Below, piece by piece: positions 15,575 to 45,058 of a stretch of DNA of 64,000 nucleotides (position 1 is the stretch's first letter; each line of letters begins with the position of its first letter). The DNA is taken from positions 106,835 to 170,834 of the forward strand of contig JBHLOY010000008.1 of NCBI GenBank assembly GCA_048939995.1. Direction: 5' to 3'. Made by a program: the position numbers and the translations under genes. The stretch is from Promethearchaeota archaeon. GTDB taxonomy: Archaea; Asgardarchaeota; Lokiarchaeia; Sigyniarchaeales; SOKP01. The notes under the pieces are model-generated. The model was not told the origin of the DNA and made no database searches. It saw only the letters and a list, made by a program, of their open reading frames with translations.

Positions 15575-16054
15575 TTATGATTTAGGGATAATAATGGAAT
15601 GATCTTCCTTTATCCTGTCTAAAACGAGCTGGGTTTTTATTTCTTCTACTTCTGGAAGATTACGGAGATTCTCAATCAGTTTCATAGAATCTTCATGATC
15701 AAGACATTTAGCCATTATAAAGATTGGATAATCTCCTGTGATAACATAGGCGTATTTAATTTTATCCATCCGTTCAATTTCCTCTTTAATTTGCTGAAGT
15801 GGTTTCCTTGAATTCACTCGAAGGGACGCAATTACCATCTCCCGATAGTTTAATTTTCGGCAGTCTATAATCGCCATGTACTTTTTAATAAAAGTCTCTT
15901 CTAATTTCTGAATACGAGCCCTTATTGCCGTCTGGCTCATATTAGTCTGTTCTGCAATTTCTCGAATTGTTATTTTACCATCTTCTTGTAATAACTCTAA
16001 AATTTGTTTATCAATCGCATCAAGCGTTCCAGGGGTAGAATTTGCTATTACCAT
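15575..16054 (-). CDS. Lrp/AsnC family transcriptional regulator, divergent from the tusA-dsr-hdr operon
   Basis: LDAIDKQILELLQEDGK HTH; ITGDY RAM-domain motif. Confidence 0.92.
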   Translation of the reverse strand: MVIANSTPGTLDAIDKQILELLQEDGKITIREIAEQTNMSQTAIRARIQKLEETFIKKYMAIIDCRKLNYREMVIASLRVNSRKPLQQIKEEIERMDKIKYAYVITGDYPIFIMAKCLDHEDSMKLIENLRNLPEVEEIKTQLVLDRIKEDHSIIIPKS

Positions 16055-16313
16055 TTAAAAACTCCTTTTTGAAAAAATTATAATTTATTATAGATCATTA
16101 ATTATTAATTGCCTTTTATACTTATATTTTTTTTCACTAAGAATCAACTAATAAAAGTTTTATTTCACTAATAATGCTTTCGATTGTAAATTATTTAGCT
16201 ATGATTTAAATATGAGAAAGTATTTTTATCCATAAAGTAATTCACATTTAAATTATTGTGATTGAAAAAGTTGAAAAAACAGATAAAATAACTAAAAAAG
16301 GTGGAAATTTTAA

Positions 16314-16538
16314 ATGTCGGATTTAACACTTGATTGTTTAGGAAAGAAATGTCCAATGCCAGTTTTAATGACCAAAAAAGAATTGAAGAAGTTGAGTCCA
16401 GGTCAGACACTTGAGTTGGTAGTTGATGATAAGGGAGCATTAAAGGATGTACCTGCATTATTGACTAAAACTGGTGATGAATTGCTTGAAACAAGAGAAG
16501 ATAATGGTAGAATTACATTCGTGATTAAGAAAGCCTAG
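16314..16538 (+). CDS. tusA: TusA/SirA sulfur carrier
   Basis: LDCLGKKCPMP, CPxP motif; 74 aa. Confidence 0.92.
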   Translation: MSDLTLDCLGKKCPMPVLMTKKELKKLSPGQTLELVVDDKGALKDVPALLTKTGDELLETREDNGRITFVIKKA

Positions 16539-16550
16539 AAAAAGGAGAAC

Positions 16551-16925
16551 ATGAGAATGTCAACATATACTTTCATGATATCTACTGAGCCGTATAAGTT
16601 CGAAGCAGTTGATACTTTGCTTAATTTATGTAGAGCAGTGTTACAAAAAGGACATAATATTAAGGGAATATTTTTTTACGGAAGCGGTGTCTATAATATT
16701 AAAAAAGATATTGAAACTGGTATTACTGTTCGTAATTTACCAGCACGTTTGGAAGAATTTATTAAGGAGAATCAGATTCCAGTCGCTGGGTGTACAACAT
16801 GGATTGGACTTTGTGGATTAAATGAGCATTGTTTTATTGATGGTGCAAAAGAAGAAGGATTGGGTGAATTGTCCAATTGGACAGCAGAATCAGATAAACT
16901 AATAATGTTTGGAACAGGGGGATAA
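16551..16925 (+). CDS. dsrE: DsrE/TusD sulfurtransferase
   Basis: EPY, IFFYGSGVY, active-site-position Cys in VAGCTTW, GLGEL. Confidence 0.85.
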   Translation: MRMSTYTFMISTEPYKFEAVDTLLNLCRAVLQKGHNIKGIFFYGSGVYNIKKDIETGITVRNLPARLEEFIKENQIPVAGCTTWIGLCGLNEHCFIDGAKEEGLGELSNWTAESDKLIMFGTGG

Positions 16926-16930
16926 GGAAA

Positions 16931-17299
16931 ATGATCAAATCGGTTGTAATAGTAAGTGACCAATCTCCAGTCGGAAAAAACTCTGCCATTGAAGCTTTAA
17001 GGCTAGGGTCAGGATTTAGGGGATTAGGGGAGGAGATTGACTGCCAGGTGGTACTTATGGGTGATGCGGTTTACTTATTGAGTAAACACGCAGATCCCTC
17101 TAAAATTGGAGTTGATTCTTTTGATGAACCAATGGAAATGGCGGAATTGTCTGATTTAGAAATATCAGTACTTGACAGCGCTATAAGTGATGCTGGATTA
17201 ACAAAAGAAGATCTTGTGGAATTTGAGGGTTTAAAGATAATCGATCTCAAAACTCTTGCAGAAATAATCGAAAATGCCGATACTACATTTAGATTCTAA
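16931..17299 (+). CDS. dsrF: DsrF/TusC family protein
   Basis: SPVG..SAIEALR, LMGDAVY; directly follows dsrE. Confidence 0.8.
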   Translation: MIKSVVIVSDQSPVGKNSAIEALRLGSGFRGLGEEIDCQVVLMGDAVYLLSKHADPSKIGVDSFDEPMEMAELSDLEISVLDSAISDAGLTKEDLVEFEGLKIIDLKTLAEIIENADTTFRF

Positions 17300-17313
17300 G
17301 GTGGTGAATAAAA

Positions 17314-17655
17314 GTGGAAAAAGTTATTGATATGGTATATCTTTTTGGATTTAGTCCTAGATTTGGGAATGAATTAAACCGATTAGTACCAATTCTAAAA
17401 AGCCAGATAGAAAAAGGAAAGAAAATAAGCATAGTGTTCATTCATGATGGCGTTATTGGTACTAGTTCAAAAGGAAAAATTACAGAATCAGTGAATATAC
17501 TTAGAGGGTTAATGCTTAAGAAATATGTTATGACTCCTGACTTAGCCGCAAGAGGAATTCCATTAGAGCATATTCAAGAAGATTTACAGCCCATAGATTA
17601 TATGGAGCTTGTTGATATAATGGAGAATAGTAATAAAATTATCTCATGGATGTAA
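17314..17655 (+). CDS. dsrH: DsrH/TusB family protein
   Basis: FIHDGV, DLAARGI, IDYMELVD, ends ISW. Confidence 0.85.
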   Translation: MEKVIDMVYLFGFSPRFGNELNRLVPILKSQIEKGKKISIVFIHDGVIGTSSKGKITESVNILRGLMLKKYVMTPDLAARGIPLEHIQEDLQPIDYMELVDIMENSNKIISWM

Positions 17656-17782
17656 TTTAAGAAAAAATAGATAAAGTAAATTCAAAAATATTTTTTAAAA
17701 CAAATAAATCATGGTTAACAAATAGTTAACTCACATAATTAACAAAATCAAAACAAACAAATTTAAAAAAAAGGTGTAAATT

Positions 17783-18199
17783 TTGGTAGAAAAAATGAAC
17801 TTTATTGTAAAAGACAAATCTTTTGAAAAGTTTATGATGATGACAATCTTGGGAACCACTGGAAGTGCAATGGATGTGGAAATGAATTTCTTTTTCACTT
17901 TCTGGGGATTAAACCTTTTAAAGAAGAAGTTTAAGCCCAAAGTAGCCGGAATGCCAACACCTATGAAAGGTATGGCAGCTGGAATGTTCAGGAAACGATT
18001 AAAGAAATTTGGTATGGAAGATCCATGGGCCTTGATCAAAGAAGCTATTGACGAGGGAAAAATGAAACTATATCCATGTCAAATGACAATGGATTTAATG
18101 AACATTAAAAGAGAAGAAATGTGGGATTTTGTAGAAGATCCTATCGGTGCAGCTGGTTTCATAGAAATGGCTGATGGTGGCCAAGTAGTCTCATTATAA
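17783..18199 (+). CDS. DsrE2-type (DrsE_2) sulfurtransferase
   Basis: FFFTFWGL and CQMTMDLM signatures. Confidence 0.85.
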   Translation: MVEKMNFIVKDKSFEKFMMMTILGTTGSAMDVEMNFFFTFWGLNLLKKKFKPKVAGMPTPMKGMAAGMFRKRLKKFGMEDPWALIKEAIDEGKMKLYPCQMTMDLMNIKREEMWDFVEDPIGAAGFIEMADGGQVVSL

Positions 18200-18239
18200 A
18201 AATTTTTTTTTTTATTTTATATTTAAAGAGGATGATAAA

Positions 18240-18800
18240 ATGTCTGATGTGGAAGAAGAACAACATCGGGAATTTATGATTGATGAGGATTTTGACTCAG
18301 AGTTTTTTAGAAATATTGAACGTAGATCAAATATATTAAAATGTATCCAATGCGGCACTTGTACTGCCAGTTGTGAAAGCGGAAGATGGACCGCATTAAA
18401 AACACGTTCAATTATCAGGAAAGTTGTGCTAGGAGATTTATCGGTATTAAAGGATCCTGATATTTGGTTATGCACAACATGTTATCAGTGTTATGAACGA
18501 TGCCCACGAGATGTAAGGCCTACAGATGTAATTATGGAATTACGAAATTATGCTACTAAGTTAGGAAACATTTCTCCTAATCATAGAGCGGTTGTTGGAT
18601 ACTTGAAACAATTTGGGCATGCAGTACCCATAAATGATGAGATAAGGAAGCGAAGAGTTGAATTAGGTTTAGAAGAATTACCTCCTACTGCATTCAAGTT
18701 TAAGCAAGAGGGGGATGATAAAGATTTAAAAAATATTGAAGAAAAAATGTTTGATTTACCTCCTGTTAAGGAGGAAAAAAAGAAAAAAGAGGAGGCATAA
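18240..18800 (+). CDS. hdrC: Heterodisulfide reductase subunit C
   Basis: CIQCGTCTASC and WLCTTCYQCYERCP; GHAVPIN. Confidence 0.95.
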   Translation: MSDVEEEQHREFMIDEDFDSEFFRNIERRSNILKCIQCGTCTASCESGRWTALKTRSIIRKVVLGDLSVLKDPDIWLCTTCYQCYERCPRDVRPTDVIMELRNYATKLGNISPNHRAVVGYLKQFGHAVPINDEIRKRRVELGLEELPPTAFKFKQEGDDKDLKNIEEKMFDLPPVKEEKKKKEEA

Positions 18801-18803
18801 AAA

Positions 18804-19718
18804 GTGGTAAAAGAAAAAACTTTTGCGTTTTTCCTTGGTTGTATCATGCCCAACCGTTATCCTGCGATTGAAAAGTCAACCAAATTTGTTATGGAAAAGT
18901 TAGGATACGAGATTTTAGACATGGAAAGAGCAACATGTTGTCCTGCACCTGGTGTATTTCGCTCATTTAACAAATTTGATTGGATGGTTGCAGCAGCTAG
19001 AAATCTTTGTATCGCTGAAAAAATGGATGCTGATATTTTAACAGTATGTAATGGTTGTTTTGGTACACTTCAAGAAGTAAATAAACATCTTAAAGAAAAT
19101 GAAGATCATAGAGATAAGGTAAATGAGAAGTTGAAAGAAATTGGAGATTATCAGTTTCAAGGAAAAATCAACGTCCGACATGTAGCAGAAGTTCTGGGAT
19201 ATGAGGTTGGACCTTGGGGGATTGAAGATTATATTGTAAGGAAACTGAATGCTAAGGCGGCTGTTCATTATGGATGCCACTTTTTGAAACCAACAAGGAT
19301 TCGAGAAATTGAAAGTTCTGAAGGACCAACAATTATCGAAGAATTCGTGGAAGTCTTAGGAATACAATCAGTTAGATTTAAAGAACAACTAACGTGCTGT
19401 GGCGCAGGAGGAGGTGTAAAAGCATATTCAGGTGATGCAAGTATGACAATTTTTGCGGAAAAAATGAAGAATATTGATGAAGTGAAGCCAGATTTTATAT
19501 TAGATATATGTCCCTTCTGTCATTTACAGTTCGAATCGGGACAGGATTACTTAAACAAAAACAAGGCATGTAATTATGATTACCCTGTAATCCACCTTTC
19601 TCAATTAGTTGCATATTGTATGGGCATGGATCAAGAATTTGTGGGTTTACAATACCAATTAATGGGTCGGGATTATATTTTTGGGGAAGTTGAAGCGAAA
19701 AGAGAGGAGGTAGCGTAA
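18804..19718 (+). CDS. hdrB: Heterodisulfide reductase subunit B
   Basis: Two CCG domains: FLGC, CCPAPG, CNGC, HYGCH, CCGAGGG, CPFCHLQF. Confidence 0.95.
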   Translation: MVKEKTFAFFLGCIMPNRYPAIEKSTKFVMEKLGYEILDMERATCCPAPGVFRSFNKFDWMVAAARNLCIAEKMDADILTVCNGCFGTLQEVNKHLKENEDHRDKVNEKLKEIGDYQFQGKINVRHVAEVLGYEVGPWGIEDYIVRKLNAKAAVHYGCHFLKPTRIREIESSEGPTIIEEFVEVLGIQSVRFKEQLTCCGAGGGVKAYSGDASMTIFAEKMKNIDEVKPDFILDICPFCHLQFESGQDYLNKNKACNYDYPVIHLSQLVAYCMGMDQEFVGLQYQLMGRDYIFGEVEAKREEVA

Positions 19719-21749
19719 ATGACTGTCAAAGAAGAAAAAGTAAAAGAGACAAATGACACTCAAGAGTCATTAGAGCATGAGGAGAGTGAACCTAGAATTG
19801 GAGTGTTTGTTTGTCACTGTGGGCATAATATAGCTGGTACTGTTGATGTTGCTGAAGTTGCAGAATATGCAAAAAGTTTACCGAATGTAGTGAAAGCAGA
19901 ACATTATATGTTTATGTGTAGTAAACCAGGCGTCCAAATGGTTAAGGATTCAATTAAAGAATTAGGAGTAGATAGAACTGTGGTTGCCTCATGTTCAAAA
20001 AATCAACACGGAAGAACCTTTGCTAATGCCATCCAAGAGATGGGTTTAAACAAGCATCGTCATCAACAAGTAAATATTAGAGAATTTGATAGTTGGGTGC
20101 ATCAAAAAGAAAAGGATAAAGCAACTAAAAAAGCAGAAAGATTAATTGAAGCAGGGGTCAATAGAGCACGTAAATTAGAAGATGTAGAAACTCGGAGAAT
20201 TCCTACAACCAAAGCTGCATTAGTTATTGGTGCAGGTATTGCCGGTCTTCGAGCAGCCCACGATCTAGCAGAATTAGGGATTCCAGTTTATCTGGTTGAG
20301 CGAGAATCAACTATAGGAGGACATATGACCCAATTAAACAAGACCTTTCCAACCTTAGAATGTCCCCAGTGTTCCATATCTCCACTTACTAATGGAGTTG
20401 CGAATCATCCATTAATCGAACTTTATACAAATGCTCAAATTAAAGAAGTAGAAGGTTCAATGGGTAATTTTGAAGTGGAAATTGAAATCAAACCACGATA
20501 TGTTAAAGATAATTGTACTTCGTGCGGGGAATGTGCAATTCATTGCCCTGTAGAAGTTCCCAGTGAATGGGATAAAGGCATGTCTATAAGAAAGGCTATT
20601 TATAAAGCATATCCTCAAGCTATCCCAGCCACATATGTGAGAGACAAGAAAAATTGTATCGAGTGTAATACATGTATTAATGTTTGTCCAGTTCAAGCTG
20701 TTGATTTTTCAATGGAACCAGAAACAAAAAGATTTAAAATAGGCTCTATAGTTGTAGCTACTGGGTATGATGAATACGATCCTTCCGAAATTGAAGCTTA
20801 TCATTATAAACAAGAGGGTTATGAAAATGTTATAACCCAACTGCAGGTAGAACGGATGCTTGCTCCTGGCTCTTTAACTAACAGTCAAGTACTAAGACCT
20901 TCTGACGCTAAAATCCCAAAAAATGTAGTGATGATTCAATGCGTTGGAAGTAGAAATGATCAGGTAGGGAATATATATTGCACAGGAGTTTGTTGTAAAT
21001 TTGCGATTAAAAATGCTCGAATTATTAAGGAAATGTATCCTAATTCTAATGTTACCATATGTTATATAGATGTAAGAACTCCTGGGTTAAATTTTGAGGA
21101 ATTATATAAATCCTCCCAGGAAGTGGGAGTACGATTCATAAGGGGAAGACCTTCTGAAATTCTTCGAGATCCTATTTCTGGAGAATTAAGGGTAATAGTT
21201 GAAGATACATTAAGTCAAACACCATTGAAGTTAAAAGCAGATTTAGTAGTATTATCTGCAGCCATGGTTCCACCAGAAGGAATCGGTCCTTTAGGTTCAA
21301 AATTGCATGTTCTTCGATCTAAAGAAGGGTTTTTAAAAGAATTTCATATTAAGATGAATCCCACCTTAAGCAGTAAAGGTGGTATTTTTTTAGCTGGAGC
21401 AATTCAAGGTCCAAAAGACATTTCAGAGTCTGTAGCTCATGCTGGAAATGCTGCTGCATTAGCAGCTGCTCCCTTAGTAAAAGGATATATTGAAAAAGAA
21501 ATGTTAATCCCATCCATAGATTTAGACTTATGTGTTAAATGCGGGCTTTGTAAAACTGTATGTGCTCCTGCTGCGATTGATATAAATGAGGATGGAATCC
21601 CTAAGATTAATGAGATAGCATGTAAATCATGTGGTATGTGTATGCCTGCATGTCCAACAGGGGCTATTCAATTGTTAAATTTTAGTGATGAGCAACTATT
21701 AGATGAAATTGTTGCTGTATCTGGAGGTGTTATATGCGAAAATGAGTGA
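19719..21749 (+). CDS. hdrA: Heterodisulfide reductase subunit A (flavin-bifurcating type), Cys form
   Basis: CHCG.NI, GAGIAG, KTFPTLECPQC, inserted and C-terminal 2x[4Fe-4S] domains, CVGSR...CTGVCC, ERM, GPKDI. Confidence 0.96.
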   Translation: MTVKEEKVKETNDTQESLEHEESEPRIGVFVCHCGHNIAGTVDVAEVAEYAKSLPNVVKAEHYMFMCSKPGVQMVKDSIKELGVDRTVVASCSKNQHGRTFANAIQEMGLNKHRHQQVNIREFDSWVHQKEKDKATKKAERLIEAGVNRARKLEDVETRRIPTTKAALVIGAGIAGLRAAHDLAELGIPVYLVERESTIGGHMTQLNKTFPTLECPQCSISPLTNGVANHPLIELYTNAQIKEVEGSMGNFEVEIEIKPRYVKDNCTSCGECAIHCPVEVPSEWDKGMSIRKAIYKAYPQAIPATYVRDKKNCIECNTCINVCPVQAVDFSMEPETKRFKIGSIVVATGYDEYDPSEIEAYHYKQEGYENVITQLQVERMLAPGSLTNSQVLRPSDAKIPKNVVMIQCVGSRNDQVGNIYCTGVCCKFAIKNARIIKEMYPNSNVTICYIDVRTPGLNFEELYKSSQEVGVRFIRGRPSEILRDPISGELRVIVEDTLSQTPLKLKADLVVLSAAMVPPEGIGPLGSKLHVLRSKEGFLKEFHIKMNPTLSSKGGIFLAGAIQGPKDISESVAHAGNAAALAAAPLVKGYIEKEMLIPSIDLDLCVKCGLCKTVCAPAAIDINEDGIPKINEIACKSCGMCMPACPTGAIQLLNFSDEQLLDEIVAVSGGVICENE

Positions 21750-22194
21750 ATGTGAATATATCAAGCCCGAAGTGCTCGAGAAGATGGAAAATATTGTAGT
21801 GTTTATGTGTAATGAGTGTGGCCAAGGTTCTGCAAATACAGCTGGAGTAGCTCGAATGGCATATAATCCAGCTATACGTATAGTTCGAGTCCAATGTACG
21901 GGTCAAGTAGGACCGATCCAAATTATGGATGCATTGAGTAATGGAGCTGACGCAGTTGCATGTGTCGGATGCTGTCTAGGGGCATGCCATTTCTTCAATG
22001 GTAATATTCTTTCAATGCACCGAATTAAGCTTATGAAGAAGTTATTCAAAGAATTAGGCTACAGTGACCAAATTATTAACCAATACACCTCACGAGCTGC
22101 AGAAGGTGAAACTGCAGTAGGTGATTTTGAAGATATTGTAGAGAGATTAGCAACTGCAATTAGAGAGGAGGCGACATTCAAAGATGGATGTTAA
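21742..22194 (+). CDS. mvhD: MvhD [2Fe-2S] subunit, Cys form
   Basis: FMCNEC, RVQCTG, GADAV...GCCLGACHF; start moved to ATG 21742 behind GGAGGTG. Confidence 0.88.
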   Translation: MSECEYIKPEVLEKMENIVVFMCNECGQGSANTAGVARMAYNPAIRIVRVQCTGQVGPIQIMDALSNGADAVACVGCCLGACHFFNGNILSMHRIKLMKKLFKELGYSDQIINQYTSRAAEGETAVGDFEDIVERLATAIREEATFKDGC

Positions 22195-23419
22195 AGTTTT
22201 TCAATTTAATGGATGCAATAAATGCTTTAATGAAACTATTCTATTAAAAGCAGATTCAAACCATAAAATTGGGTTTGTATCTAATCCTAGGAATTGGAAA
22301 GAGGAGAAAATTGATGTTTCTGTAATTACGGGTTATTTATTACCAGAGGATAAAGAGACTTTAGATAAAATTATAAGAAATTCAACAAAAATTATTGCAT
22401 ATGGAGATTGTAGCGCTACTGGTGGAGTTTTTGCCTTATCCAATCAACGGGGTCATAAAGTAACACCTTTAAGAAAGATGCAGGAAGGTATCTTGAATGT
22501 GTATGGTTGTTTGGGTGAAATAGAAGAACTAGAAGCATTAATTATAGGTAAAGATTTACCGAAACTAAATAATTTATGTATTGTATGTGGAAGAAAGAAA
22601 ACGTGTGATTATTTAGAAGAAGTCAAGCGTCAAATAGAATTAGATGACGAAGAGAAATGTTTTAATGATCTTGGATACTTATGTAATGGATTTATAGCAA
22701 AAGAATGTAAAGAACGATGTATCGATTACAATGCGCCCTGTCGTGGTTGCAAACCTATAATTGAACGTTCAGGAATCAGAATGCTGGGAATGTTTGGAAC
22801 TTTAATGGGAAATATTGAAGTCTCTACAGAGCATTCTGAAAAGGGAGCTACAGATAAACTAGCAGATAATGATGACGATGTTACGGCAAGTTTACCTGAT
22901 ATCGTTGGTAATTTCTTTAGATTCACGTTATCTACCTCTGGTTTGCCTAAAGGGAGAATCAACTCTTCAGGAAGCCTATTAGAAGATGTATTTACAGGGA
23001 GATTAATAGAAGAATTACCTTTAATTACGGGTTTATTGGGGGGAGATCGCTCGATTTCACTAACGCTTAAAGTCCTAGAGACCTATGAAGAAGGTAATAA
23101 TATAGAAGTAAGTGAGACTACAAAACAATATCGAAAGGAATTATTAGAGTTAGAAAATGAATTACTAACAACAATAGAATCCAAAGATCCAAAAAAATAT
23201 AAAGAGGTGACTGATAAGATTCGAAAAATTGCTGGTAATATGAATTTATCTAATCTCTACTATGGGGGATTTAAATCACAAATTAATGAGAATGATAATT
23301 TTGAGGACTATAAAACCCATGTTTTTGATGTGGTTGAAGGTACTTATAAAAATGGTTCGATTGAGCTTACAATTGATTCCATAGGTATTGTAAAAGAAAT
23401 AAAAATTAAAGAGGGTTAA
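22184..23419 (+). CDS. MvhG-like Fe-S small subunit fused to a degenerate, Cys-free NiFe large-subunit-like domain
   Basis: GCNKC, AYGDCSATGG, YGC, CIVC, CF..LG.LC.G, C...C, CRGC; C-terminal LEDVFTGRLIEELPLITGLLGG resembles the large-subunit L1 region without Cys. Confidence 0.75.
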   Translation: MDVKVFQFNGCNKCFNETILLKADSNHKIGFVSNPRNWKEEKIDVSVITGYLLPEDKETLDKIIRNSTKIIAYGDCSATGGVFALSNQRGHKVTPLRKMQEGILNVYGCLGEIEELEALIIGKDLPKLNNLCIVCGRKKTCDYLEEVKRQIELDDEEKCFNDLGYLCNGFIAKECKERCIDYNAPCRGCKPIIERSGIRMLGMFGTLMGNIEVSTEHSEKGATDKLADNDDDVTASLPDIVGNFFRFTLSTSGLPKGRINSSGSLLEDVFTGRLIEELPLITGLLGGDRSISLTLKVLETYEEGNNIEVSETTKQYRKELLELENELLTTIESKDPKKYKEVTDKIRKIAGNMNLSNLYYGGFKSQINENDNFEDYKTHVFDVVEGTYKNGSIELTIDSIGIVKEIKIKEG

Positions 23420-23421
23420 AC

Positions 23422-25890
23422 ATGAGTTTTGAATTATTAAAAGTTGAAATTGTAGACGCTGGCCTTTGTCAAGGATGCGGCTTATGTGCTGGATCGTGTA
23501 AGCATATTGAGATGGAAGTAAAGCGTCCATCCCTTAAAGACTACTGTATTTTAGAGAGAGATGGTCAAGATTGTGGAAAGTGTTATCAGAACTGCCCTCA
23601 AGTTATTCAAAAGAAGTTTGAGGAAAAAGAGCCGTTAGCTTTATATTCTTTAAGGAGTAAGAATCTTGATGTTCTATCTAAAGCTGCTAGTGGAGGCTTT
23701 ATCACTACTTTTGTTAAGGAACTTTTAGAGAACCAGACACTTAAGAAAATAGTAATGGTACATGAAGAGGATGAAAAACCAATTGCGGAAATTGTTTCAA
23801 ATCCTGAAGAAGCGGTTAAAAAAGCAGGAGTAGTTTATGGTAGATCTGGAGTGTTAGAGCGGTTAGTAGAAATTACAGGCGAATCTTTTGATCAAATAGG
23901 TATTGTTGGTGTGCCCTGTGAAATGCGTGGAGCTGCTGAAATAGAAGAGGAAATGAAACGGGACATTCTAAAAATTGGATTGTTTTGTAATTCACAAATT
24001 CGTACCGAAGAAACAGATAAAGGCTTAGTATGCTCTCCATGCTGTAATGGCTGTCCTTCTGGAGTAAATGCTCAGGGATATATTTCATTAATACGTCAGG
24101 GCAAATATCAAGATGCTGTAAATCTAATTAGAGAAAACAATCCGCTACCATCAATATGTGGTCGCATTTGTACTAATGAATGTGAATATGGATGTACTTT
24201 AATCGGAGACGACCATCCCGTCGCAATTCGAGAATTAAAGAAGTTTGTAACGGAGTGGGAGATCGAAAAAGCAAAAAAAGAAGTAAAAAATATACCGAAA
24301 TTGAAGAAGAATGCTAAAAAAGTGGCAATTATTGGATCTGGTCCCGCAGGTTTAACTGCGGCTTATTATTTGAGAAGAATGGGATATGTAGCAACTATTT
24401 TCGAAAAAACCGATCAGACAGGAGGGATGCTACGATTTGGAGTACCCCAATTTCGATTACCTAACTATGTCTTAGATTATGACGTTGAAAGGATAATAGA
24501 ATCTGGAGTTAAAGTAGAACTTAATAAACCATTAGGACATGAAATGACCATTGAGGATTTGAAAAATAGTGGTTTTGAGGCAATTTTTATAGCAACAGGT
24601 CAATATAAGCCTCGAACCTTGCATTTAGAAGGAGAAGAGCTTCCAAATGTATTTGTGGCAATCAGTTTCTTAATGGATAGAAAATACCGTTATTGGGAAA
24701 ATAAAGAAGAATTTAAAGGAAAAACTATAGGGATAATTGGAGGTGGCCCTGTTGCTGTTGATGTTGCTCAAACTGCATTAAGGTTAGGTGCAGAAAAAAT
24801 TCATTTAGTAGATATAATGTCAGAAGAACAACTAGAATTAGTTTTAAAGGATATTCCTGAAAATGAAATGGCTTTCATGCAATATCACTTCAAAACATCC
24901 ACTTCAAAAATTACACAGAATGATGATGGCAAATTAGTTTTGAATTGTTATAACATAGAATGGGGAAAACCAGATGAGAATGGAAGGAGACCATTAAATA
25001 AAGTACAACAATCCGAATTTGAAATTCCTATTGATAATATCGTAATAGCAGTTGGTCAAGCCGTTGATTTTGACCAGATAGATGTTGCTACTAATAACAA
25101 GTTAGAAAAAGAACGCAATAAAATCAAGGTAAATGAAATTACTTTTGAAACAAATATTCCAGGAGTTTTTGCTGGAGGAGACATCATTAACAATTCCAAA
25201 GCTGTAGCTATTGCCGCAATAGCACACGGAAAAGAAGCAGCAATTTCAATAGACAAGTACTTGAAAGGAGAAAATTTAGTAGATGGACGATATAAGAGAG
25301 TAAATTCATTTTTCACTGGACCTAATAGACCTCCTAAAGATTACTCTTTGAAACCAGAATCCTTAGAGGAAGCAACTGAAGAGATAAATTGGTCTTTTGA
25401 AGAGATAGATAAGATGTTTAATGAAGATATGGCTTTACAAGAGGCACGTAGATGTTTAAGTTGTAATCATTTCTGTTCCCACTGTCAAGATTTCCCAGCA
25501 ATTTATTCAGATTTAACTGCAGGGGAAATCGGTTCACAAAAGGGATATACTACCGTTGTAGTATGGACTGAACGTGGGAAAGAACTTGTTGAACAGGCAA
25601 TTCAAAAAGGATTGTTTGAACAAGGTAAAGTGAATGAACAAGAACTCAAAACTGCTATCAATTTGAAATCAAAGAGAGAACTTATGATTTTTAAAAAGAC
25701 TCCACGACAATATGTATTGGATTATATTACACTTCAAGGGCCTAGTACAATAAATGATATAGCAAAAAATACTGGAATCGAGGCAAAAAAAGTTAGATAT
25801 GAAGCACTTCGTTTAGTCCAGTTAATGGAATTAGAAATGAAAGCAGATCAGGATATGGATGAACCAGTATTTTCAATTATGTGTGATTAA
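23422..25890 (+). CDS. Chimeric FrhB-family protein with inserted GltD/NfnB-like NAD(P)H:Fe-S oxidoreductase and C-terminal winged helix
   Basis: N-terminal ferredoxin, SGGFIT, VGVPC, IGLFC | CSPCCNGCP, NPLPSICGRIC, GSGPAG, GGGPVAVD, FAGGD, EARRCLSC | CSHCQDF..SDLTAGEIGS..GYTTVVVWTERG | GPSTINDIAKNTGIEAKKVRY. Confidence 0.8.
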   Translation: MSFELLKVEIVDAGLCQGCGLCAGSCKHIEMEVKRPSLKDYCILERDGQDCGKCYQNCPQVIQKKFEEKEPLALYSLRSKNLDVLSKAASGGFITTFVKELLENQTLKKIVMVHEEDEKPIAEIVSNPEEAVKKAGVVYGRSGVLERLVEITGESFDQIGIVGVPCEMRGAAEIEEEMKRDILKIGLFCNSQIRTEETDKGLVCSPCCNGCPSGVNAQGYISLIRQGKYQDAVNLIRENNPLPSICGRICTNECEYGCTLIGDDHPVAIRELKKFVTEWEIEKAKKEVKNIPKLKKNAKKVAIIGSGPAGLTAAYYLRRMGYVATIFEKTDQTGGMLRFGVPQFRLPNYVLDYDVERIIESGVKVELNKPLGHEMTIEDLKNSGFEAIFIATGQYKPRTLHLEGEELPNVFVAISFLMDRKYRYWENKEEFKGKTIGIIGGGPVAVDVAQTALRLGAEKIHLVDIMSEEQLELVLKDIPENEMAFMQYHFKTSTSKITQNDDGKLVLNCYNIEWGKPDENGRRPLNKVQQSEFEIPIDNIVIAVGQAVDFDQIDVATNNKLEKERNKIKVNEITFETNIPGVFAGGDIINNSKAVAIAAIAHGKEAAISIDKYLKGENLVDGRYKRVNSFFTGPNRPPKDYSLKPESLEEATEEINWSFEEIDKMFNEDMALQEARRCLSCNHFCSHCQDFPAIYSDLTAGEIGSQKGYTTVVVWTERGKELVEQAIQKGLFEQGKVNEQELKTAINLKSKRELMIFKKTPRQYVLDYITLQGPSTINDIAKNTGIEAKKVRYEALRLVQLMELEMKADQDMDEPVFSIMCD

Positions 25891-25929
25891 ATTTTATTAA
25901 TAATTAAAAATAAGATAAGGAGAGAAACC

Positions 25930-26169
25930 ATGAAATTTGATCAAGAGTTAAATGTATGCGGGTTAGTATGTCCCGTTCCAGCGCTTAAGACAAAGAAGGA
26001 ATTAATGAAAATGAGGCCTGGAGCAGTTTTAAAAGTAATCACTGACTACAAACCCGCATCTGAGAGTGTTCCTAGAGACTTAGCTAAACAAACTAAACAC
26101 AAACATTTAGGAACCGAATTCATCGAAGATGAAGAACAATGGTGGATTTATTTTGAAGCTGTTAAATAA
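25930..26169 (+). CDS. tusA: TusA/SirA sulfur carrier (second copy, closes the operon)
   Basis: LNVCGLVCPVP, VLKVITD. Confidence 0.9.
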   Translation: MKFDQELNVCGLVCPVPALKTKKELMKMRPGAVLKVITDYKPASESVPRDLAKQTKHKHLGTEFIEDEEQWWIYFEAVK

Positions 26170-34062: not shown

Positions 34063-34413
34063 TTATAACCAAGATATAATTTTCGAATTGGCAACCAATA
34101 GATCAACAAGATTTGCATACTCGATTTTTGCAATTTTATCCAAAATGAAATTTGGATTAATTCCACGAGCTTTAAGATCGGGTTGAAGAATATAAAAAGA
34201 AATAGGTAAATTAATAAGATCTAATAAATGTTTACTCATTTTAGACTTTTTGGTAAGTCCGATAACCGCGTCATGCATAAATACGAATGTGATATTTACT
34301 CCTAATTCTTTTTGTTCTTTTATGATATTTATCATTTTCTTTAATGGTCTGTAATTGTTTAAACTATAGCCAAAAAGATAAATAATGTTTTTAGACTTTT
34401 CCAATTTCGCCAC
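34063..34413 (-). CDS. dsrH: DsrH/TusB family protein (second copy)
   Basis: FMHDAV, DLKARGI, ends ISWL; paralog of 17314-17655. Confidence 0.85.
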   Translation of the reverse strand: MAKLEKSKNIIYLFGYSLNNYRPLKKMINIIKEQKELGVNITFVFMHDAVIGLTKKSKMSKHLLDLINLPISFYILQPDLKARGINPNFILDKIAKIEYANLVDLLVANSKIISWL

Positions 34414-34419
34414 CTCCTC

Positions 34420-34785
34420 CTAATATTTAAAACAAAAATCATTATCTAACAATAATTTAGAAATCGTCTTATAATCTATAATTTTTAAATGTTCATAAGG
34501 AATTAAGTCATTTTTATCAAGATCTAATGCTATAAGATCTTCAAGTGCAACAAGAATATGAAGTTCCGATAATTCGATTAACCTAATCATATCATCAAGC
34601 GAATCCATATTCAAATCCGAAGGGTTTACATTTTTATTAAGAAATAAAATCGCATCTCCTAAAAATAGCACTTGGCAAGTCTCAATATCTCCCATACTTA
34701 AAATTCCAGCAGCTAGTCTTATTGACTCAACCGCAGAATTTTTTCCAAAGGGAGAATCTTCACAAATTATCAAAATAGAAGTAAT
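34420..34785 (-). CDS. dsrF: DsrF/TusC family protein (second copy), probable ATT start
   Basis: SPFGKNSAVESIRL, CQVLFLGDA; alignment to 16931-17299 extends to ATT 34785, 6 nt after GGAGGTGA. Confidence 0.8.
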   Translation of the reverse strand: MTSILIICEDSPFGKNSAVESIRLAAGILSMGDIETCQVLFLGDAILFLNKNVNPSDLNMDSLDDMIRLIELSELHILVALEDLIALDLDKNDLIPYEHLKIIDYKTISKLLLDNDFCFKY

Positions 34786-34791
34786 GTATCC

Positions 34792-35160
34792 TCACCTCCC
34801 TGGTCCAAAAAATACAACTCGATCAGATTTACCGATTAGTTCTGAAAGTCCACCTAATCCATCCAAACATGCTCTTTTGATAAAATCTGATTCCTTTAAT
34901 CCAGTTATACTTATCCAGGTACTACAAGCAGCTATATCGGCATTACTTTTCTCAATAAATTTTTGAAGTCTTTTTGGTAAATCTCGAATCGAACTAAATA
35001 GTTTTCTATCTTTCTTAATGTTATATACTCCACTACCAAGGAAGAAAATGCCTGCTACTTGATGCCCTTTTTTAATAATAGCTTCTCCTAGATTAATTGC
35101 AGTATCTATTGCTTGATATTTATATGGTTCAGCGGTAATAACAAAAGAAAATTTTAGCAT
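34792..35160 (-). CDS. dsrE: DsrE/TusD sulfurtransferase (second copy)
   Basis: EPYKY, IFFLGSGVY, IAACSTW, GLSEL. Confidence 0.85.
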   Translation of the reverse strand: MLKFSFVITAEPYKYQAIDTAINLGEAIIKKGHQVAGIFFLGSGVYNIKKDRKLFSSIRDLPKRLQKFIEKSNADIAACSTWISITGLKESDFIKRACLDGLGGLSELIGKSDRVVFFGPGR

Positions 35161-35204
35161 ATTATTAAAAATACTTTAATCAATATTTTTAATTTATCAT
35201 TTTC

Positions 35205-36152
35205 TTATCCAGAGTAGTGTTCTTTTTCTGGATGAATCATATTGGTGAATTGAAAATCAAAAATATCTTTAATGCTGAGTTGCTTATTTACATAACCTAG
35301 ATTATGAAGAATCTGTATAAATCTCATTGTAGACCCTATATACTCTTCAGAAAGTGCAACGCAATATTTTGGTGAGATTTTAAGTACAGACAAAACATAT
35401 TTTGTATTAATAAATCCAAATGATTTTGAAATTATTTTAGCTGCTTTCTTTTTCTTATTTCTCAACATATATGAAGCTTTCTTGTGCTGTTCTAAAAAGG
35501 TTTTTCCTATATTATGATGATCTTTAATTAAGTTTTCATGAAAGAATATCCCATAGCTTGGATTATAAGACCATAATTCAAATGGGGGGATTATAATATG
35601 AGCGTTTAGTATAGTTGAAGCAAAAACACTTAACGAAGGAGTTCCAACACCTGCTTCTAACAAATTCCTTTTCATATCAACAGCAATGAATTCTGCCTGT
35701 TCATAATTAACTATTGTTATATCATTCTGTAAATCATGTTGTTTAAGATAATATCTAATTATTACATCATGAATAGAACCTTTACTTGGAACACCGACAG
35801 CTTTTCCTTTGAATTGAGAGAGTACCATATTCATATCACCATTTGATTCTTCCATTTTTTTGTATCTCATTTTAGCAATCATTATTGTGCCTTCTACATG
35901 ACCTCCAGCAACGCATTTAATAGGAACTCCAGAATCGATTCCAATAATAGCAGGAGGGAGCCCCATATATCCAATATCTAACCTACCTTCTCTAAAAGCT
36001 TTAACCATTGATGGTCCAGTTCCAAATAAAAACCAATCTATATCGCTTTTAATGTGTTTCTGAAAATCTTTTCTTTCCTTTAAAATGAAAGCTGTATGAT
36101 AAGCAGTGGATAAATAACCAATATTAACCTTATTTTTTTTGATATAAATCAC
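35205..36152 (-). CDS. NitT/TauT/SsuA/Thi5-fold substrate-binding-like protein lacking a signal peptide
   Basis: IGYL, GPSMV.AF..GRLDIGYMGLPPAI, GVPSKGSIHD; no N-terminal hydrophobic segment. Confidence 0.8.
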   Translation of the reverse strand: MIYIKKNKVNIGYLSTAYHTAFILKERKDFQKHIKSDIDWFLFGTGPSMVKAFREGRLDIGYMGLPPAIIGIDSGVPIKCVAGGHVEGTIMIAKMRYKKMEESNGDMNMVLSQFKGKAVGVPSKGSIHDVIIRYYLKQHDLQNDITIVNYEQAEFIAVDMKRNLLEAGVGTPSLSVFASTILNAHIIIPPFELWSYNPSYGIFFHENLIKDHHNIGKTFLEQHKKASYMLRNKKKKAAKIISKSFGFINTKYVLSVLKISPKYCVALSEEYIGSTMRFIQILHNLGYVNKQLSIKDIFDFQFTNMIHPEKEHYSG

Positions 36153-36269
36153 TATTCAATTTTATTAAAAATTAGAAAATTATGAACTATTATTTAAAAT
36201 TATAAAGGAAATAATTAATTCTTAAAAGTTATTTTTTAAATATAAGTGAATGATATTAAAAAAGATTAT

Positions 36270-36557
36270 ATGATCCAAATTAGAGTTTGTTTTTTCTCAG
36301 TAATAAGCGATTTTACTAATAAGGATGAAATCACATTATCTACTGATGAAAAATCTACTATTAAAGATGTCATAGATAAAATAACTCTAAATTTTGGAAG
36401 AAAGTTCGGAGAACTTGTATTAAAAACTCCGAATGAGATCAATGATTATATAATCGTTGCAAAGAATGGAAAAGATGTCCGTTCCTTAAATAATTTAAAA
36501 ACATTTTTACAGAATGGTGATGAAATCTCATTTTTACCTGCAATTGCGGGTGGATAG
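36270..36557 (+). CDS. MoaD/ThiS/SAMP ubiquitin-like sulfur carrier
   Basis: Beta-grasp pattern NGKDV..L....LQNGDEISFLPAIAGG ending in GG; start 36270 (ATG) or 36246 (GTG). Confidence 0.9.
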   Translation: MIQIRVCFFSVISDFTNKDEITLSTDEKSTIKDVIDKITLNFGRKFGELVLKTPNEINDYIIVAKNGKDVRSLNNLKTFLQNGDEISFLPAIAGG

Positions 36558-36580
36558 AAACAAGGAACGAGGAGAGTTTA

Positions 36581-36847
36581 TTAAATTCTTTTAAGTCTAA
36601 GCATCCATTCCTTAGGTTTTGAATTAATTGATTTTCCTTTTAAAAGTATTGCTAATTTTTGGCGTTTACAGCTATCAGGTATATTTTTAAGAGCGGGTTC
36701 AAAATCTAATATTACTTCCAAAATTTCATCCTTATTAAGCTTCTCAAGCTCTACTTTTGTATATACGAAAGTCATCGGACAAACTTTTCCTCTTATATCC
36801 AAAGAATGAACCTTCGTATCTTTTACTTCTTTACTTTTTACCGGCAG
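36581..36847 (-). CDS. tusA: TusA/SirA sulfur carrier (third copy), start uncertain
   Basis: LDIRGKVCPMT, LEVILD. TTG 36802 truncates the first strand; the frame is open to CTG 36847 / ATT 36850 after GGAGTGA. Confidence 0.8.
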   Translation of the reverse strand: MPVKSKEVKDTKVHSLDIRGKVCPMTFVYTKVELEKLNKDEILEVILDFEPALKNIPDSCKRQKLAILLKGKSINSKPKEWMLRLKRI

Positions 36848-37644
36848 AATTCTTCACTCCAATAATCTACAATTTCTTCAAATTTTTTTGGACTTTCACC
36901 ACAAGATTTACAATTTTCATTTCGCTGAACTTCAATAAAGCTAAAATTATTTCTAAGAATATCAATAAACAGAATCTTATTTGTTATCAAATCTCCAATG
37001 TTTAATAGGGCTTTTATTGCTTCATTAGCTTCTATGCAACCAAAAATTCCGGGTGCTAATCCAATAACACCAGCTACAGAGCAGGTCATATTTGGGTCCA
37101 TCCCATCAACATTATCAAAAATACATTTATAACATGTAGTTTTCTTTTCAGGTACAACTGTCATTATTTGACCATGAAATCTTAAAACTCCTGCTATTGT
37201 GAAAGGAATTTTTAAATGTACACAGGTATCATTAATTAACATCTTTGTTGGGAAATTATCTGAACCTTCTATAACAAAATCAGAATCCTTTAAAATTTTT
37301 CTTGAGTTTTTAGGGGTAATTCGCTCAGTAATAGTTTCTATTTTGCAATCTGGATTAATAGAATTTAACTTTTTAATAGCACTCTCTGTTTTATACTTAT
37401 TTATATCTTCAGTATAATAAAGTATTTGGCGATGCAAATTAGAAATTTCCACAACATCATAATCAATTAATTGTAAATTTCCTACTCCTGCAGCCGTTAA
37501 GTAGTAAGCTGCTGAGGATCCTAAAGCACCTAAACCAATTAATGACACTTTAGAATTTAATAACTTTTTTTGTCCGATACTCCCTATTTCACTTAAAATT
37601 ATTTGACGAGAATATCTTTCAATTTGATCTTTAGTTAATTCCAT
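36838..37644 (-). CDS. ThiF/MoeB/UbaA E1-like adenylyltransferase
   Basis: RYSRQI, GLGALG, SNLHRQ, Zn sites CYKC and CKSC, TCSVAGV. Confidence 0.92.
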   Translation of the reverse strand: MELTKDQIERYSRQIILSEIGSIGQKKLLNSKVSLIGLGALGSSAAYYLTAAGVGNLQLIDYDVVEISNLHRQILYYTEDINKYKTESAIKKLNSINPDCKIETITERITPKNSRKILKDSDFVIEGSDNFPTKMLINDTCVHLKIPFTIAGVLRFHGQIMTVVPEKKTTCYKCIFDNVDGMDPNMTCSVAGVIGLAPGIFGCIEANEAIKALLNIGDLITNKILFIDILRNNFSFIEVQRNENCKSCGESPKKFEEIVDYWSEEFCR

Positions 37645-43847: not shown

Positions 43848-45026
43848 CTAATCAAGAGATTTGTTAACTAATTCTGTTAAGTCCATCATTTGGATATTAG
43901 AATTAAGAGCTGTTATGGCATCTGATAAATTTCGATAACAAAAAGGACAGATACTAATGATATGCTCCGCTCCAGTTTGTTCTGCTTCCTTAATCCTACT
44001 TTTGGCTATGTTTATTGCTAAATCGGGAAATCCTTTTTTCACACCACCCCCTGCTCCACAACATTTAGCTTGCTCTTTAATTGTTTTCATTTCGGTTAAT
44101 TTACCAATTTTACGTATTAATTCTCGAGGTTCTTCATAAAGAGGATTATTACCACAATTTCTTCCAGTATGACATGGATCATGATAAGTTGAATTAATGT
44201 CTAAATGTTTCATTCGAATTTCACTCTTTTCTATATAATTTTTAATAAATTCTATTGAATGTAAGATCTCAATATTTAAGTCTTTAAGAACCTCCCCATA
44301 ATCAACTTTTAAAGTTCTAAAACAGCCGGCGCAGCTTGTTATGAGGGTTTTTATTCCACTTTTTCTGAATAATTCATAATTTTTACGTGATACTTTGTTA
44401 AACGCTTCCGTATTTCCCGTCCTTAAAACAACACTTCCACAACAAATTTCGTGTTGTCCATAAATTCCATAATCAATATTTAACTTTTTTAAAATTTCTG
44501 CAGTATTTGTTGCCACAGCTTGGATTTCTGGAGTTAAAGCGGTAGTACATCCCACAAAATATAATACTTCTGCCTCTTCAGAATATAAATCCTTAATTCT
44601 AAAGTTTAATTTTTTAGTCCATTCATTTTTTTGCTTATTATCACGTTCATAAGGATTTAGTAACTCGATAATAGCTTTATTCATGGGAATGTGTGCTTCT
44701 AATCCATAACCAGCATCTACTAATTCTGCCCGCAGAGCTTCAAACATTAAAGCATTGTCCATTTCATAAGCACACGCTTCAGCGCAAGCATTACACGTAG
44801 GACATTGGTAAATGACTTCTGCCAGATCTTTACTTAATTCCAATTTCCCCTGCCAGAGTGACCTTATAACTTGCATCTTTCCTCTTCCAAAATAAGGTTC
44901 AAATCCCGAAGTGTGATCTTTAGCTACACAAACCCCCCATTTTTGGGGATCTGCAGTATAATCTGTAGCCTCCCTACAATCCCCACAACTAATGCATTGA
45001 AGGAGAAGAGTTCCAAATCGACTCAA
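43848..45026 (-). CDS. GlcF/HdrD-like Fe-S protein (2x[4Fe-4S] plus two CCG domains)
   Basis: CISCGDC, CPTCNACAEAC, YFVGC, CCG, CAGC, YHDPCH, CCGAGGG, CPFC; true start may be near 45062. Confidence 0.88.
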   Translation of the reverse strand: MSRFGTLLLQCISCGDCREATDYTADPQKWGVCVAKDHTSGFEPYFGRGKMQVIRSLWQGKLELSKDLAEVIYQCPTCNACAEACAYEMDNALMFEALRAELVDAGYGLEAHIPMNKAIIELLNPYERDNKQKNEWTKKLNFRIKDLYSEEAEVLYFVGCTTALTPEIQAVATNTAEILKKLNIDYGIYGQHEICCGSVVLRTGNTEAFNKVSRKNYELFRKSGIKTLITSCAGCFRTLKVDYGEVLKDLNIEILHSIEFIKNYIEKSEIRMKHLDINSTYHDPCHTGRNCGNNPLYEEPRELIRKIGKLTEMKTIKEQAKCCGAGGGVKKGFPDLAINIAKSRIKEAEQTGAEHIISICPFCYRNLSDAITALNSNIQMMDLTELVNKSLD

Positions 45027-45058
45027 ATGTGGGAATTTTTCTTTTGGATTAAATTCTG

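Follow-up and report, generated by a model that had tools for sequence, protein, structure and literature searches.

What heterodisulfide reductase (HdrABC) acts on in non-methanogenic archaea is an open question, and it is raised here by a twelve-gene cluster of a lokiarchaeon in which hdr genes stand among genes for sulfur carriers. The cluster, with a divergent regulator gene, occupies positions 15575-26169 of the window that we analysed, 64,000 nucleotides of contig JBHLOY010000008.1 (Promethearchaeota archaeon, assembly GCA_048939995.1). A check of open reading frames (ORFs) in the window returned twelve co-oriented, stop-free ORFs on the plus strand and a divergent Lrp/AsnC gene, all intact and located where a first-pass annotation of this DNA had put them. 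The families it had named were likewise recovered: TusA twice, DsrE, DsrF, DsrH, DrsE_2, HdrC, HdrB, HdrA, FlpD/MvhD, Oxidored_q6 and FrhB_N/C, the last interrupted by profile matches to Fer4_20 and Pyr_redox_2 in the last large gene. Intergenic gaps along the twelve genes are 18, 5, 14, 127, 40, 3, 0, -8, -11, 2 and 39 nt. The host genome (3.75 Mb, 98% complete) was placed in Promethearchaeia (Lokiarchaeia) by its HdrB relatives. On balance, we think that the cluster encodes an NADH-fed, bifurcating Hdr that works near equilibrium and acts on TusA-bound sulfur; it offers TusA2-Cys14, a patch on HdrB and NADH as candidates for substrate, docking site and donor.

The Hdr core had been annotated as methanogen-type, and our comparisons bear this out. 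HdrC (18240-18800), with two [4Fe-4S] clusters, scored 176.9 bits against a TIGR03290 equivalog cut-off of 160, and HdrB (18804-19718) scored 377 bits against a TIGR03288 cut-off of 345. All ten Cys of the two five-Cys CCG motifs of HdrB, which belong to its non-cubane clusters, were present in 73/73 sequences. HdrA (19719-21749) is full length with six iron-sulfur (FeS) sites, and E378 and K431, located by alignment to solved HdrA, are kept in 66/66 sequences; we take these two to be the Glu and Lys at the bifurcating FAD. Its match to methanogen HdrA of solved structure had E 1e-194, and that to sHdrA (6TJR) only E 1e-36. MvhD, the [2Fe-2S] adaptor, follows at 21742-22194 (the ORF also opens at 21703), and every FeS ligand of the core is invariant. 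Selenoprotein versions of hdrA and mvhD were ruled out, as neither gene has an in-frame stop; HdrA is of the Cys form. Taken together, these sequence features support a methanogen-type HdrABC-MvhD with its putative bifurcation residues retained. A limited tree grouped the HdrB of the cluster in one clade (99/96) that includes locus L112 (labels with L and f are ours for loci and families) and lies apart from the host's own paralogues; it was sister to Methanobacteriaceae HdrB in this tree, which lacks other methanogen orders.

How electrons would reach this core is indicated by the next two genes. The N-terminal part of mvhG* (about residues 1-260; 22184-22963) is an MvhG small subunit with 13 invariant Cys (57/57), and its proximal ligands C11-x2-C14, C76 and C109, which include a CxxC motif, are invariant as well. 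The C-terminal part (about residues 265-411; 22976-23419) aligned to residues 44-101 of MvhA in hhalign (probability 94%, E 1.5e-7, score 55.7 against a maximum of 24.8 for shuffled sequences). The modelled residues 265-411 superposed on FrhA (Z 10.7, root-mean-square deviation 2.6 A over 144 residues); NuoD and MbsL gave superpositions as well (MbsL Z 9.3). This fold comes from an alignment-based model with a predicted local distance difference test score (pLDDT) of 70, the single-sequence fold being unusable at pLDDT 34; Foldseek returned small-subunit matches only, and the large-subunit match came through VIA and hhalign. No Cys follows residue 189 and the L1 motif of the NiFe large subunit (RICGxC) has decayed. 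The stub, being Cys-free, therefore holds no NiFe site. Thus mvhG* is MvhG fused to a decayed, Cys-free NiFe large subunit, of which the first-pass annotation had recognized the MvhG part and missed the rest. It was right that the cluster holds no intact large subunit: none with L1 and L2 Cys motifs, as in MvhADG, was found within the cluster, and two intact ones lie on other contigs of the host genome.

The adjoining protein (23422-25890) belongs to the FqoF/FpoF or Fsr-N type of the FrhB family and comprises an N-terminal domain with two [4Fe-4S] clusters, an FrhB core split by a GltD/NfnA-like insert (24010-25467) and a winged-helix-like C-terminal tail (25714-25887). The insert has sites for FAD and two FeS clusters, and an acidic residue after its second Rossmann strand (D464) in 51/52 copies, the remaining one having an NADPH-type YRR motif; the acidic residue is the NADH signature. 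The insert takes the place of the FrhB domain whose residues (128-188) line the F420 channel (PMC3930138). F420H2 was accordingly set low as donor for the window's copy, its channel domain being replaced by GltD; the host probably makes F420, since CofD and CofE are present. Among relatives the insert is absent from FrhB of L059 and L090 and reduced to a 13-residue link in family f9, a full F420-type domain occurs only in L112, and the flavin core is gone in L114. Because NADH, NADPH, insert-less, F420-type and core-less variants all occur, the donor is a swappable part. The suggestion that NAD(P)H replaces H2 thus holds for the window's lineage, most likely with NADH, and fails as a defining feature of the system.

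Some details of these variants deserve record. In the NADPH-type copy (L070:14612-17083) the GltD insert has been exchanged for one with the YRR motif, and the protein is 51% identical to the window's, whereas HdrB is at 80%. FrhB of L059 (6440-7582) and L090 (14622-15764) carries Cys-rich relics of GltD junctions, suggesting that the insert was secondarily lost, and both loci have an extra hdrC-hdrB pair after tusA2. In L114 the N-terminal ferredoxin domain and the winged-helix tail persist together as a 126-aa protein (L114:10324-10704) without the flavin core, which suggests a docking role for the two.

A different donor has been put forward for an orthologous locus of the same gene order, LOKIASV2_09800-09920 of Nerearchaeum marumarumayae. 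Nobs et al. (2025, bioRxiv, 10.1101/2025.07.22.663070) hypothesize that Hdr reduces TusA- and DsrE-bound persulfides with H2 and a group 3c hydrogenase as donor; applied here, a group 3c MvhAG would dock in trans on the cluster's HdrA-MvhD. The host does have such a locus (L108:6977-11263, G000:C17), with an intact MvhAG (a 437-aa MvhG whose distal part is duplicated, and mvhA), hdrC and hdrB, and with neither hdrA nor mvhD, and exchangeable donor arms have a precedent in Methanothermobacter, where one Hdr takes Mvh and Elp in turn (PMC12350162). However, the cluster brings its own complete donor arm with all FeS ligands conserved, the fused stub occupies the large-subunit face of MvhG*, and the genome has many further hdrA-mvhD pairs. 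As H2 in trans would also leave the last two large genes unexplained, we consider it very improbable as the main supply, although MvhAG from this locus could be an additional donor.

The remaining genes encode sulfur carriers. TusA1 (16314-16538; CPxP Cys13, 52/52), the DsrE/TusD-like protein (16557-16925, with a further start at 16551; Cys79, 53/53), the DsrE2-type carrier (17783-18199; Cys99, 64/64) and TusA2 (25930-26169; CPxP Cys14) each keep an invariant Cys. Cys79 of DsrE aligns with the active Cys78 of Allochromatium vinosum DsrE (2HY5), and the nearest solved structure to the DsrE2-type protein is 2QS7, an archaeal DsrE2B. The DsrF/TusC-like protein (16931-17299) keeps Cys38 in 53/54 sequences, possibly a second site of sulfur binding, and the DsrH/TusB-like protein (17314-17655) is Cys-free; DsrE and DsrF fall below the TusD and TusC equivalog cut-offs. 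DsrC/TusE (PF04358), the acceptor of DsrEFH relays, had no match in the genome, which is 98% complete. TusA2 is the best-conserved gene of the cluster, with a mean pairwise identity of 87% compared with 81-83% for the Hdr core and 51-65% for TusA1 (65%, the faster-evolving of the two TusA proteins) and DsrEFH. An internal C10-C14 disulfide was rejected as a general feature of TusA2, C10 being missing in MK-D1, f9 and L112, and an essential role in tRNA thiolation is unlikely, about half of the class genomes having no TusA2 match. Elsewhere in the host, tusA-dsrE-iscS-iscU precede a 795-aa CoA-disulfide-reductase/rhodanese fusion (G000:C11:526127-531421). Because this housekeeping set is encoded separately, the cluster's carriers look dedicated.

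The linkage of tus/dsr to hdr genes, which the first-pass annotation had submitted to a synteny check, is conserved. Gene order was kept in 47/48 related loci with sufficient upstream DNA and in 48/50 with sufficient downstream DNA, including those of Promethearchaeum syntrophicum MK-D1, L. ossiferum and Sigynarchaeum springense, which makes chance unlikely as its cause; since the selection went by HdrB similarity and all loci are kin, these counts are not an independent test. In one exception the TusA2 orthologue is displaced on the same contig. In four genomes of f9, a second Asgard family, from another order, lrp, a DsrE/F-like gene, hdrCBA, mvhD, mvhG*, frhB and tusA2 occur together, with dsrEFH just 3' of the cluster in 2/4, and a Methermicoccaceae metagenome-assembled genome (MAG) has dsrE-dsrE-hdrCBA-mvhD-mvhG*-frhB-tusA. 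Across Lokiarchaeia, f9 and this MAG, a TusA2-type TusA and at least one DsrE were present every time; TusA2 is the constant carrier of the cluster. Its orthologue was found in 51/101 genomes of the class, TusA2 and MvhG* were jointly present or missing in 29/30 family-f1 genomes searched both ways (kin, and so not independent), and whole genera at 98-100% completeness had no match to the module. These results demonstrate that the module is accessory.

A direct contact between TusA2 and the core was predicted by modelling. The complex of HdrB, HdrC and TusA2 reached an ipSAE of 0.79 against 0.00 for the best control, with contacts at least 94% the same between runs and a partner pLDDT of 91 or more; 58/80 solved pairs and 2/110 mismatched ones reached the ipSAE mark, counts that are only roughly valid for this three-chain job. 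The predicted interface joins HdrB 123-139 and 164-181 to TusA2 15-30 and 50-56. Seven HdrB positions are clade-specific, meaning that they are conserved in the cluster's HdrB clade and have residues that occur in neither methanogen nor paralogous HdrB, and three of these seven fall in the 20-residue interface: G/A132, P137 and F/Y181 (G132, P137 and F181 in the window), compared with Y, L and L in methanogens and with none common to the paralogues. The enrichment gave p=0.009 in a post hoc test and p=0.18 against methanogens alone. No TusA-Hdr complex appeared among solved TusA relatives. The model supports a dedicated partnership of TusA2 and HdrB rather than catalysis, and it bears out in part the expectation that HdrB would accept a TusA: TusA2 is predicted to dock, and Cys14 does not appear among the confident contacts.

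These features suggest a single soluble enzyme that contains no nickel, a flavin-bifurcating heterodisulfide reductase following the MvhADG-HdrABC plan. NADH would be oxidized at the GltD insert, and electrons would travel over FeS clusters of FrhB type and over the ferredoxin domain at the N-terminus until they reach the clusters of MvhG*, whose large-subunit stub may serve as a scaffold, and on through MvhD to the HdrA flavin. HdrA would then split them, sending one share to ferredoxin and the other through HdrC to the non-cubane clusters of HdrB. There they would act on sulfur at TusA2 Cys14, as a persulfide or mixed disulfide, and TusA2, rather than DsrC, would be loaded by TusA1, DsrEFH and DsrE2. 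Given sulfane sulfur, the likely use would be the release of sulfide and re-oxidation of NADH with a yield of reduced ferredoxin, in a reaction near equilibrium and reversible. Biosynthetic sulfur supply and uncoupled persulfide reduction seem covered elsewhere in the genome, which makes energy coupling a plausible reason for the presence of Hdr. We infer TusA-bound sulfur as the substrate of HdrB.

Several observations weigh against this reading. The coenzyme B (CoB) contacts of 5ODR, R14, R201, R240 and F233 (PMC13261682), correspond to R18, K206, S245 and F238 in the cluster's HdrB, which retains two of the three basic residues and the F233 equivalent; R18, G50, G203 and F238 are invariant and K/R206 is kept. 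TIGR03845 detected ComDE above cut-off in the host genome, so a small anionic thiol is a possible substrate. In the modelled complex TusA2 Cys14 adjoins the interface and is absent from its confident contacts; close cousins of true partners also pass the ipSAE mark, and the controls comprised neither TusA1 nor a paralogous HdrB. Parts of the tus/dsr-hdr link are missing in L071 and L082, both incomplete MAGs. L114 (dsrE-hdrA-mvhD-mvhG*, the 126-aa protein, tusA, tusA::dsrE2) retains TusA2 with hdrA-mvhD-mvhG*, and a divergent HdrD-like gene replaces hdrBC. The MK-D1 orthologues were expressed at 182-348 reads per kilobase per million mapped reads, like their neighbours, in a culture not designed around sulfur (PMC7015854 supplement). 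Finally, a YeeE importer was not found in the host genome, and the energetics, discussed below, favour the forward reaction only at low sulfide.

Retained pocket residues, ComDE, basal expression in MK-D1 and an interface that comprises neither CoB nor coenzyme M (CoM) contact residues nor Cys14 would all suit a small-molecule substrate. HdrB would then reduce an anionic heterodisulfide in the CoB/CoM pocket, and TusA2, bound off the active site, would be an adaptor or a donor of sulfur for building or repairing FeS clusters, the non-cubane ones included. The pocket itself does not discriminate between substrates, because its residues are mostly kept and the third basic contact (R240 to S245) is lost in Methanobacteriaceae too. 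The genome points the other way: McrA, NIR_SIR (DsrAB/Sir) and ComA gave no match in the 98%-complete host, cysteate synthase fell below cut-off, and the comDE-like genes lie beside a CaiB-type CoA-transferase and without comA (G000:C28:55472-57769). In addition, the retrieved hdrB loci of Methanobacteriaceae (L092-L100) have no tusA or dsrE, the host has its separate tusA-dsrE-iscS-iscU set, and maturation would seem to need fewer than three types of carrier. We therefore regard a small-molecule substrate as unlikely, and the cluster's acceptor is probably not CoM-S-S-CoB. In the genome check for CoM/CoB synthesis, mcr and dsrAB that the first-pass annotation had called for, McrA, DsrAB and ComA were thus not found and ComDE was present; the CoB pocket is mostly kept.

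The direction of the reaction is a separate issue. The potentials assumed were a standard value of -220 to -260 mV for the persulfide, -450 to -500 mV for ferredoxin and -280 to -320 mV for NADH. With these values, NADH-driven bifurcation onto a persulfide amounts to -23 to +27 kJ, and since this is near equilibrium, either direction is possible. The enzyme might thus work by confurcation, in which reduced ferredoxin and sulfide yield NADH and TusA2-persulfide; sulfide from the environment would in this way become sulfane sulfur for biosynthesis through DsrEFH and TusA1. Under the same assumptions that reaction is favourable at high sulfide; known relays move sulfur both ways between TusA and DsrEFH (PMC13293266), and the missing YeeE, the amino-acid-type Lrp regulator and the basal expression would fit it. 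On the other hand, the module is dispensable, with whole near-complete genera lacking it, IscS is available for biosynthetic sulfur, and a fermenter has surplus NADH to dispose of. On these grounds we judge the reverse direction decidedly unlikely. The claim that NAD(P)H is disposed of onto sulfane sulfur with reduction of ferredoxin, or that the system runs in reverse, stands in this limited form: the reaction would work only near equilibrium and could go either way.

The superposition of the stub on MbsL raises one further chemistry, in which the proximal cluster of MvhG*, laid bare once the NiFe site was lost, would itself reduce carrier-bound sulfane sulfur as in MbsJ/MbsL of MBS, the membrane-bound reductase of sulfane sulfur in Pyrococcus. 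That TusA2 stays with mvhG* in L114, where hdrBC are replaced, would agree with this. Catalysis by MBS, however, needs an iron without a Cys ligand (PMC7684303), whereas MvhG* has its CxxC motif and four proximal Cys, and the model puts TusA2 on HdrB (MvhG* was not part of that job). This chemistry seems to us scarcely credible.

Comparison with known systems places the NADH-fed complex more precisely. MvhADG-HdrABC (5ODC, 9SW2) has close relatives of HdrA, HdrB, HdrC, MvhD and MvhG (E 1e-189, 1e-90 and 1e-18 to 1e-20) and shares the FeS ligands and HdrA E378/K431. The cluster differs in that MvhA is reduced to a Cys-free stub on MvhG, an extra flavoprotein serves as input, sulfur-carrier genes are linked and HdrB has a clade-specific patch; the host lacks detectable McrA and ComA. 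Flx-Hdr of Desulfovibrio (FlxABCD-HdrABC) is fed by NADH and is proposed to reduce a protein disulfide (DsrC) together with ferredoxin. No Flx families occur among the twelve genes, where NADH would instead enter via the FrhB-borne GltD and MvhG*, and TusA/DsrE are linked in place of DsrC, which the host genome lacks by our search; FlxABCD-HdrABC is named in PMC7015854. In Elp-Hdr and Fdh-Hdr (PMC12350162; 8RVU, 7BKB), as here, a nickel-free arm with an FrhB-family flavoprotein and a dead homologue (ElpA) feeds MvhD-HdrA; in the cluster the dead subunit derives from a hydrogenase rather than from Fdh, and FrhB is of the FqoF/Fsr-N type with its F420-channel domain replaced by GltD (deleted in f9). 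The sHdr-LbpA pathway of sulfur oxidation, in which TusA is the terminal carrier (PMC11094781), likewise has hdr-like genes flanked by tusA and dsrE-type transferases. In line with the first-pass annotation, the cluster is not sHdr: its order is hdrC-B-A-mvhD and not shdrC1B1AHC2B2 (nor B3-etfAB), its HdrA is of the full methanogen type and not the short sHdrA, and no lbpA is linked, the two GcvH-like genes of the host lying away from the cluster and unlinked to hdr. MBS (PMC7684303), too, is a nickel-free module that derives from a hydrogenase and takes part in sulfane sulfur metabolism; it is membrane-bound with a three-Cys proximal cluster, whereas the soluble MvhG* has four Cys there and the disulfide site lies in HdrB.

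The locus, offered in the first-pass annotation as a candidate new system, is not wholly new. Its Hdr-MvhD-MvhG-FrhB-like part appears in a table of Imachi et al. (2020), and Nobs et al. annotate the orthologous locus and make the persulfide proposal; the FrhB::GltD gene (09910) is missing from the table section consulted, the stub is not noted and TusA2 not singled out, and no experiment is given. We found no literature on a decayed-hydrogenase arm, a swappable input, a TusA2-HdrB pairing or a test of the cluster in a search that left most subscription journals uncovered. The cluster is a conserved, uncharacterized variant of the family of Hdr complexes with a plug-in donor, and the idea of its substrate was partly anticipated in the preprint.

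Other features of the window may be noted briefly. The Lrp/AsnC gene, at 15575-16054 on the minus strand here, is located within the cluster in MK-D1 and L. ossiferum, where it precedes hdrC. A TATA-like box, TTTAAATA, at 16205-16212 (plus strand) stands about 105 nt 5' of tusA1; this arrangement recurs in 49/51 loci, and such a box precedes dsrE2 in 5/58 and hdrC in 3/67, a pattern that fits a single promoter. A sigma-70 and terminator scan, unsuited to archaea, gave chance-level results only. By eye, short inverted repeats of variable sequence lie at 16240-16265, 3' of the box, and at 17720-17740, in the dsrH-dsrE2 gap, and also in several relatives; they are possibly operators or RNA hairpins. 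At 34063-37644 the window holds a second, paralogous relay, consisting of a moeB/ubaA-like E1 gene, tusA, a divergent MoaD/SAMP-like gene with a GG end, a binding-protein-fold gene and dsrEFH 39-48% identical to the first set, which looks biosynthetic, and at 43848-46591 a CCG/HdrD-like protein adjoins an FAD-linked oxidase (a GlcD/LdhD-like pair). In L021, L022 and L076 paralogous dsrEFH genes follow shortly after tusA2, and in L087 and L088 (Promethearchaeum) a second, divergent hdrC-hdrB-hdrA-mvhD operon 5' of tusA1 mirrors the cluster.

Hdr has a central place in models of Asgard metabolism and in those of the hydrogen or sulfur syntrophy behind eukaryote origins, and the locus is carried by three cultured or enriched Lokiarchaeia. 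More broadly, and tentatively, since we think it less probable than the NADH-fed reading itself, the cluster may represent a soluble, respiratory-like Asgard complex in which a NiFe-less hydrogenase is a socket for NADH, NADPH or F420H2 and a dedicated TusA replaces CoM-S-S-CoB or DsrC. If this is true, it would stand as a soluble counterpart of complex I and MBS, a NiFe hydrogenase reused after loss of its metal site. Lokiarchaeia would then conserve energy by bifurcating electrons onto sulfane sulfur, and would be less dependent on H2-consuming partners.

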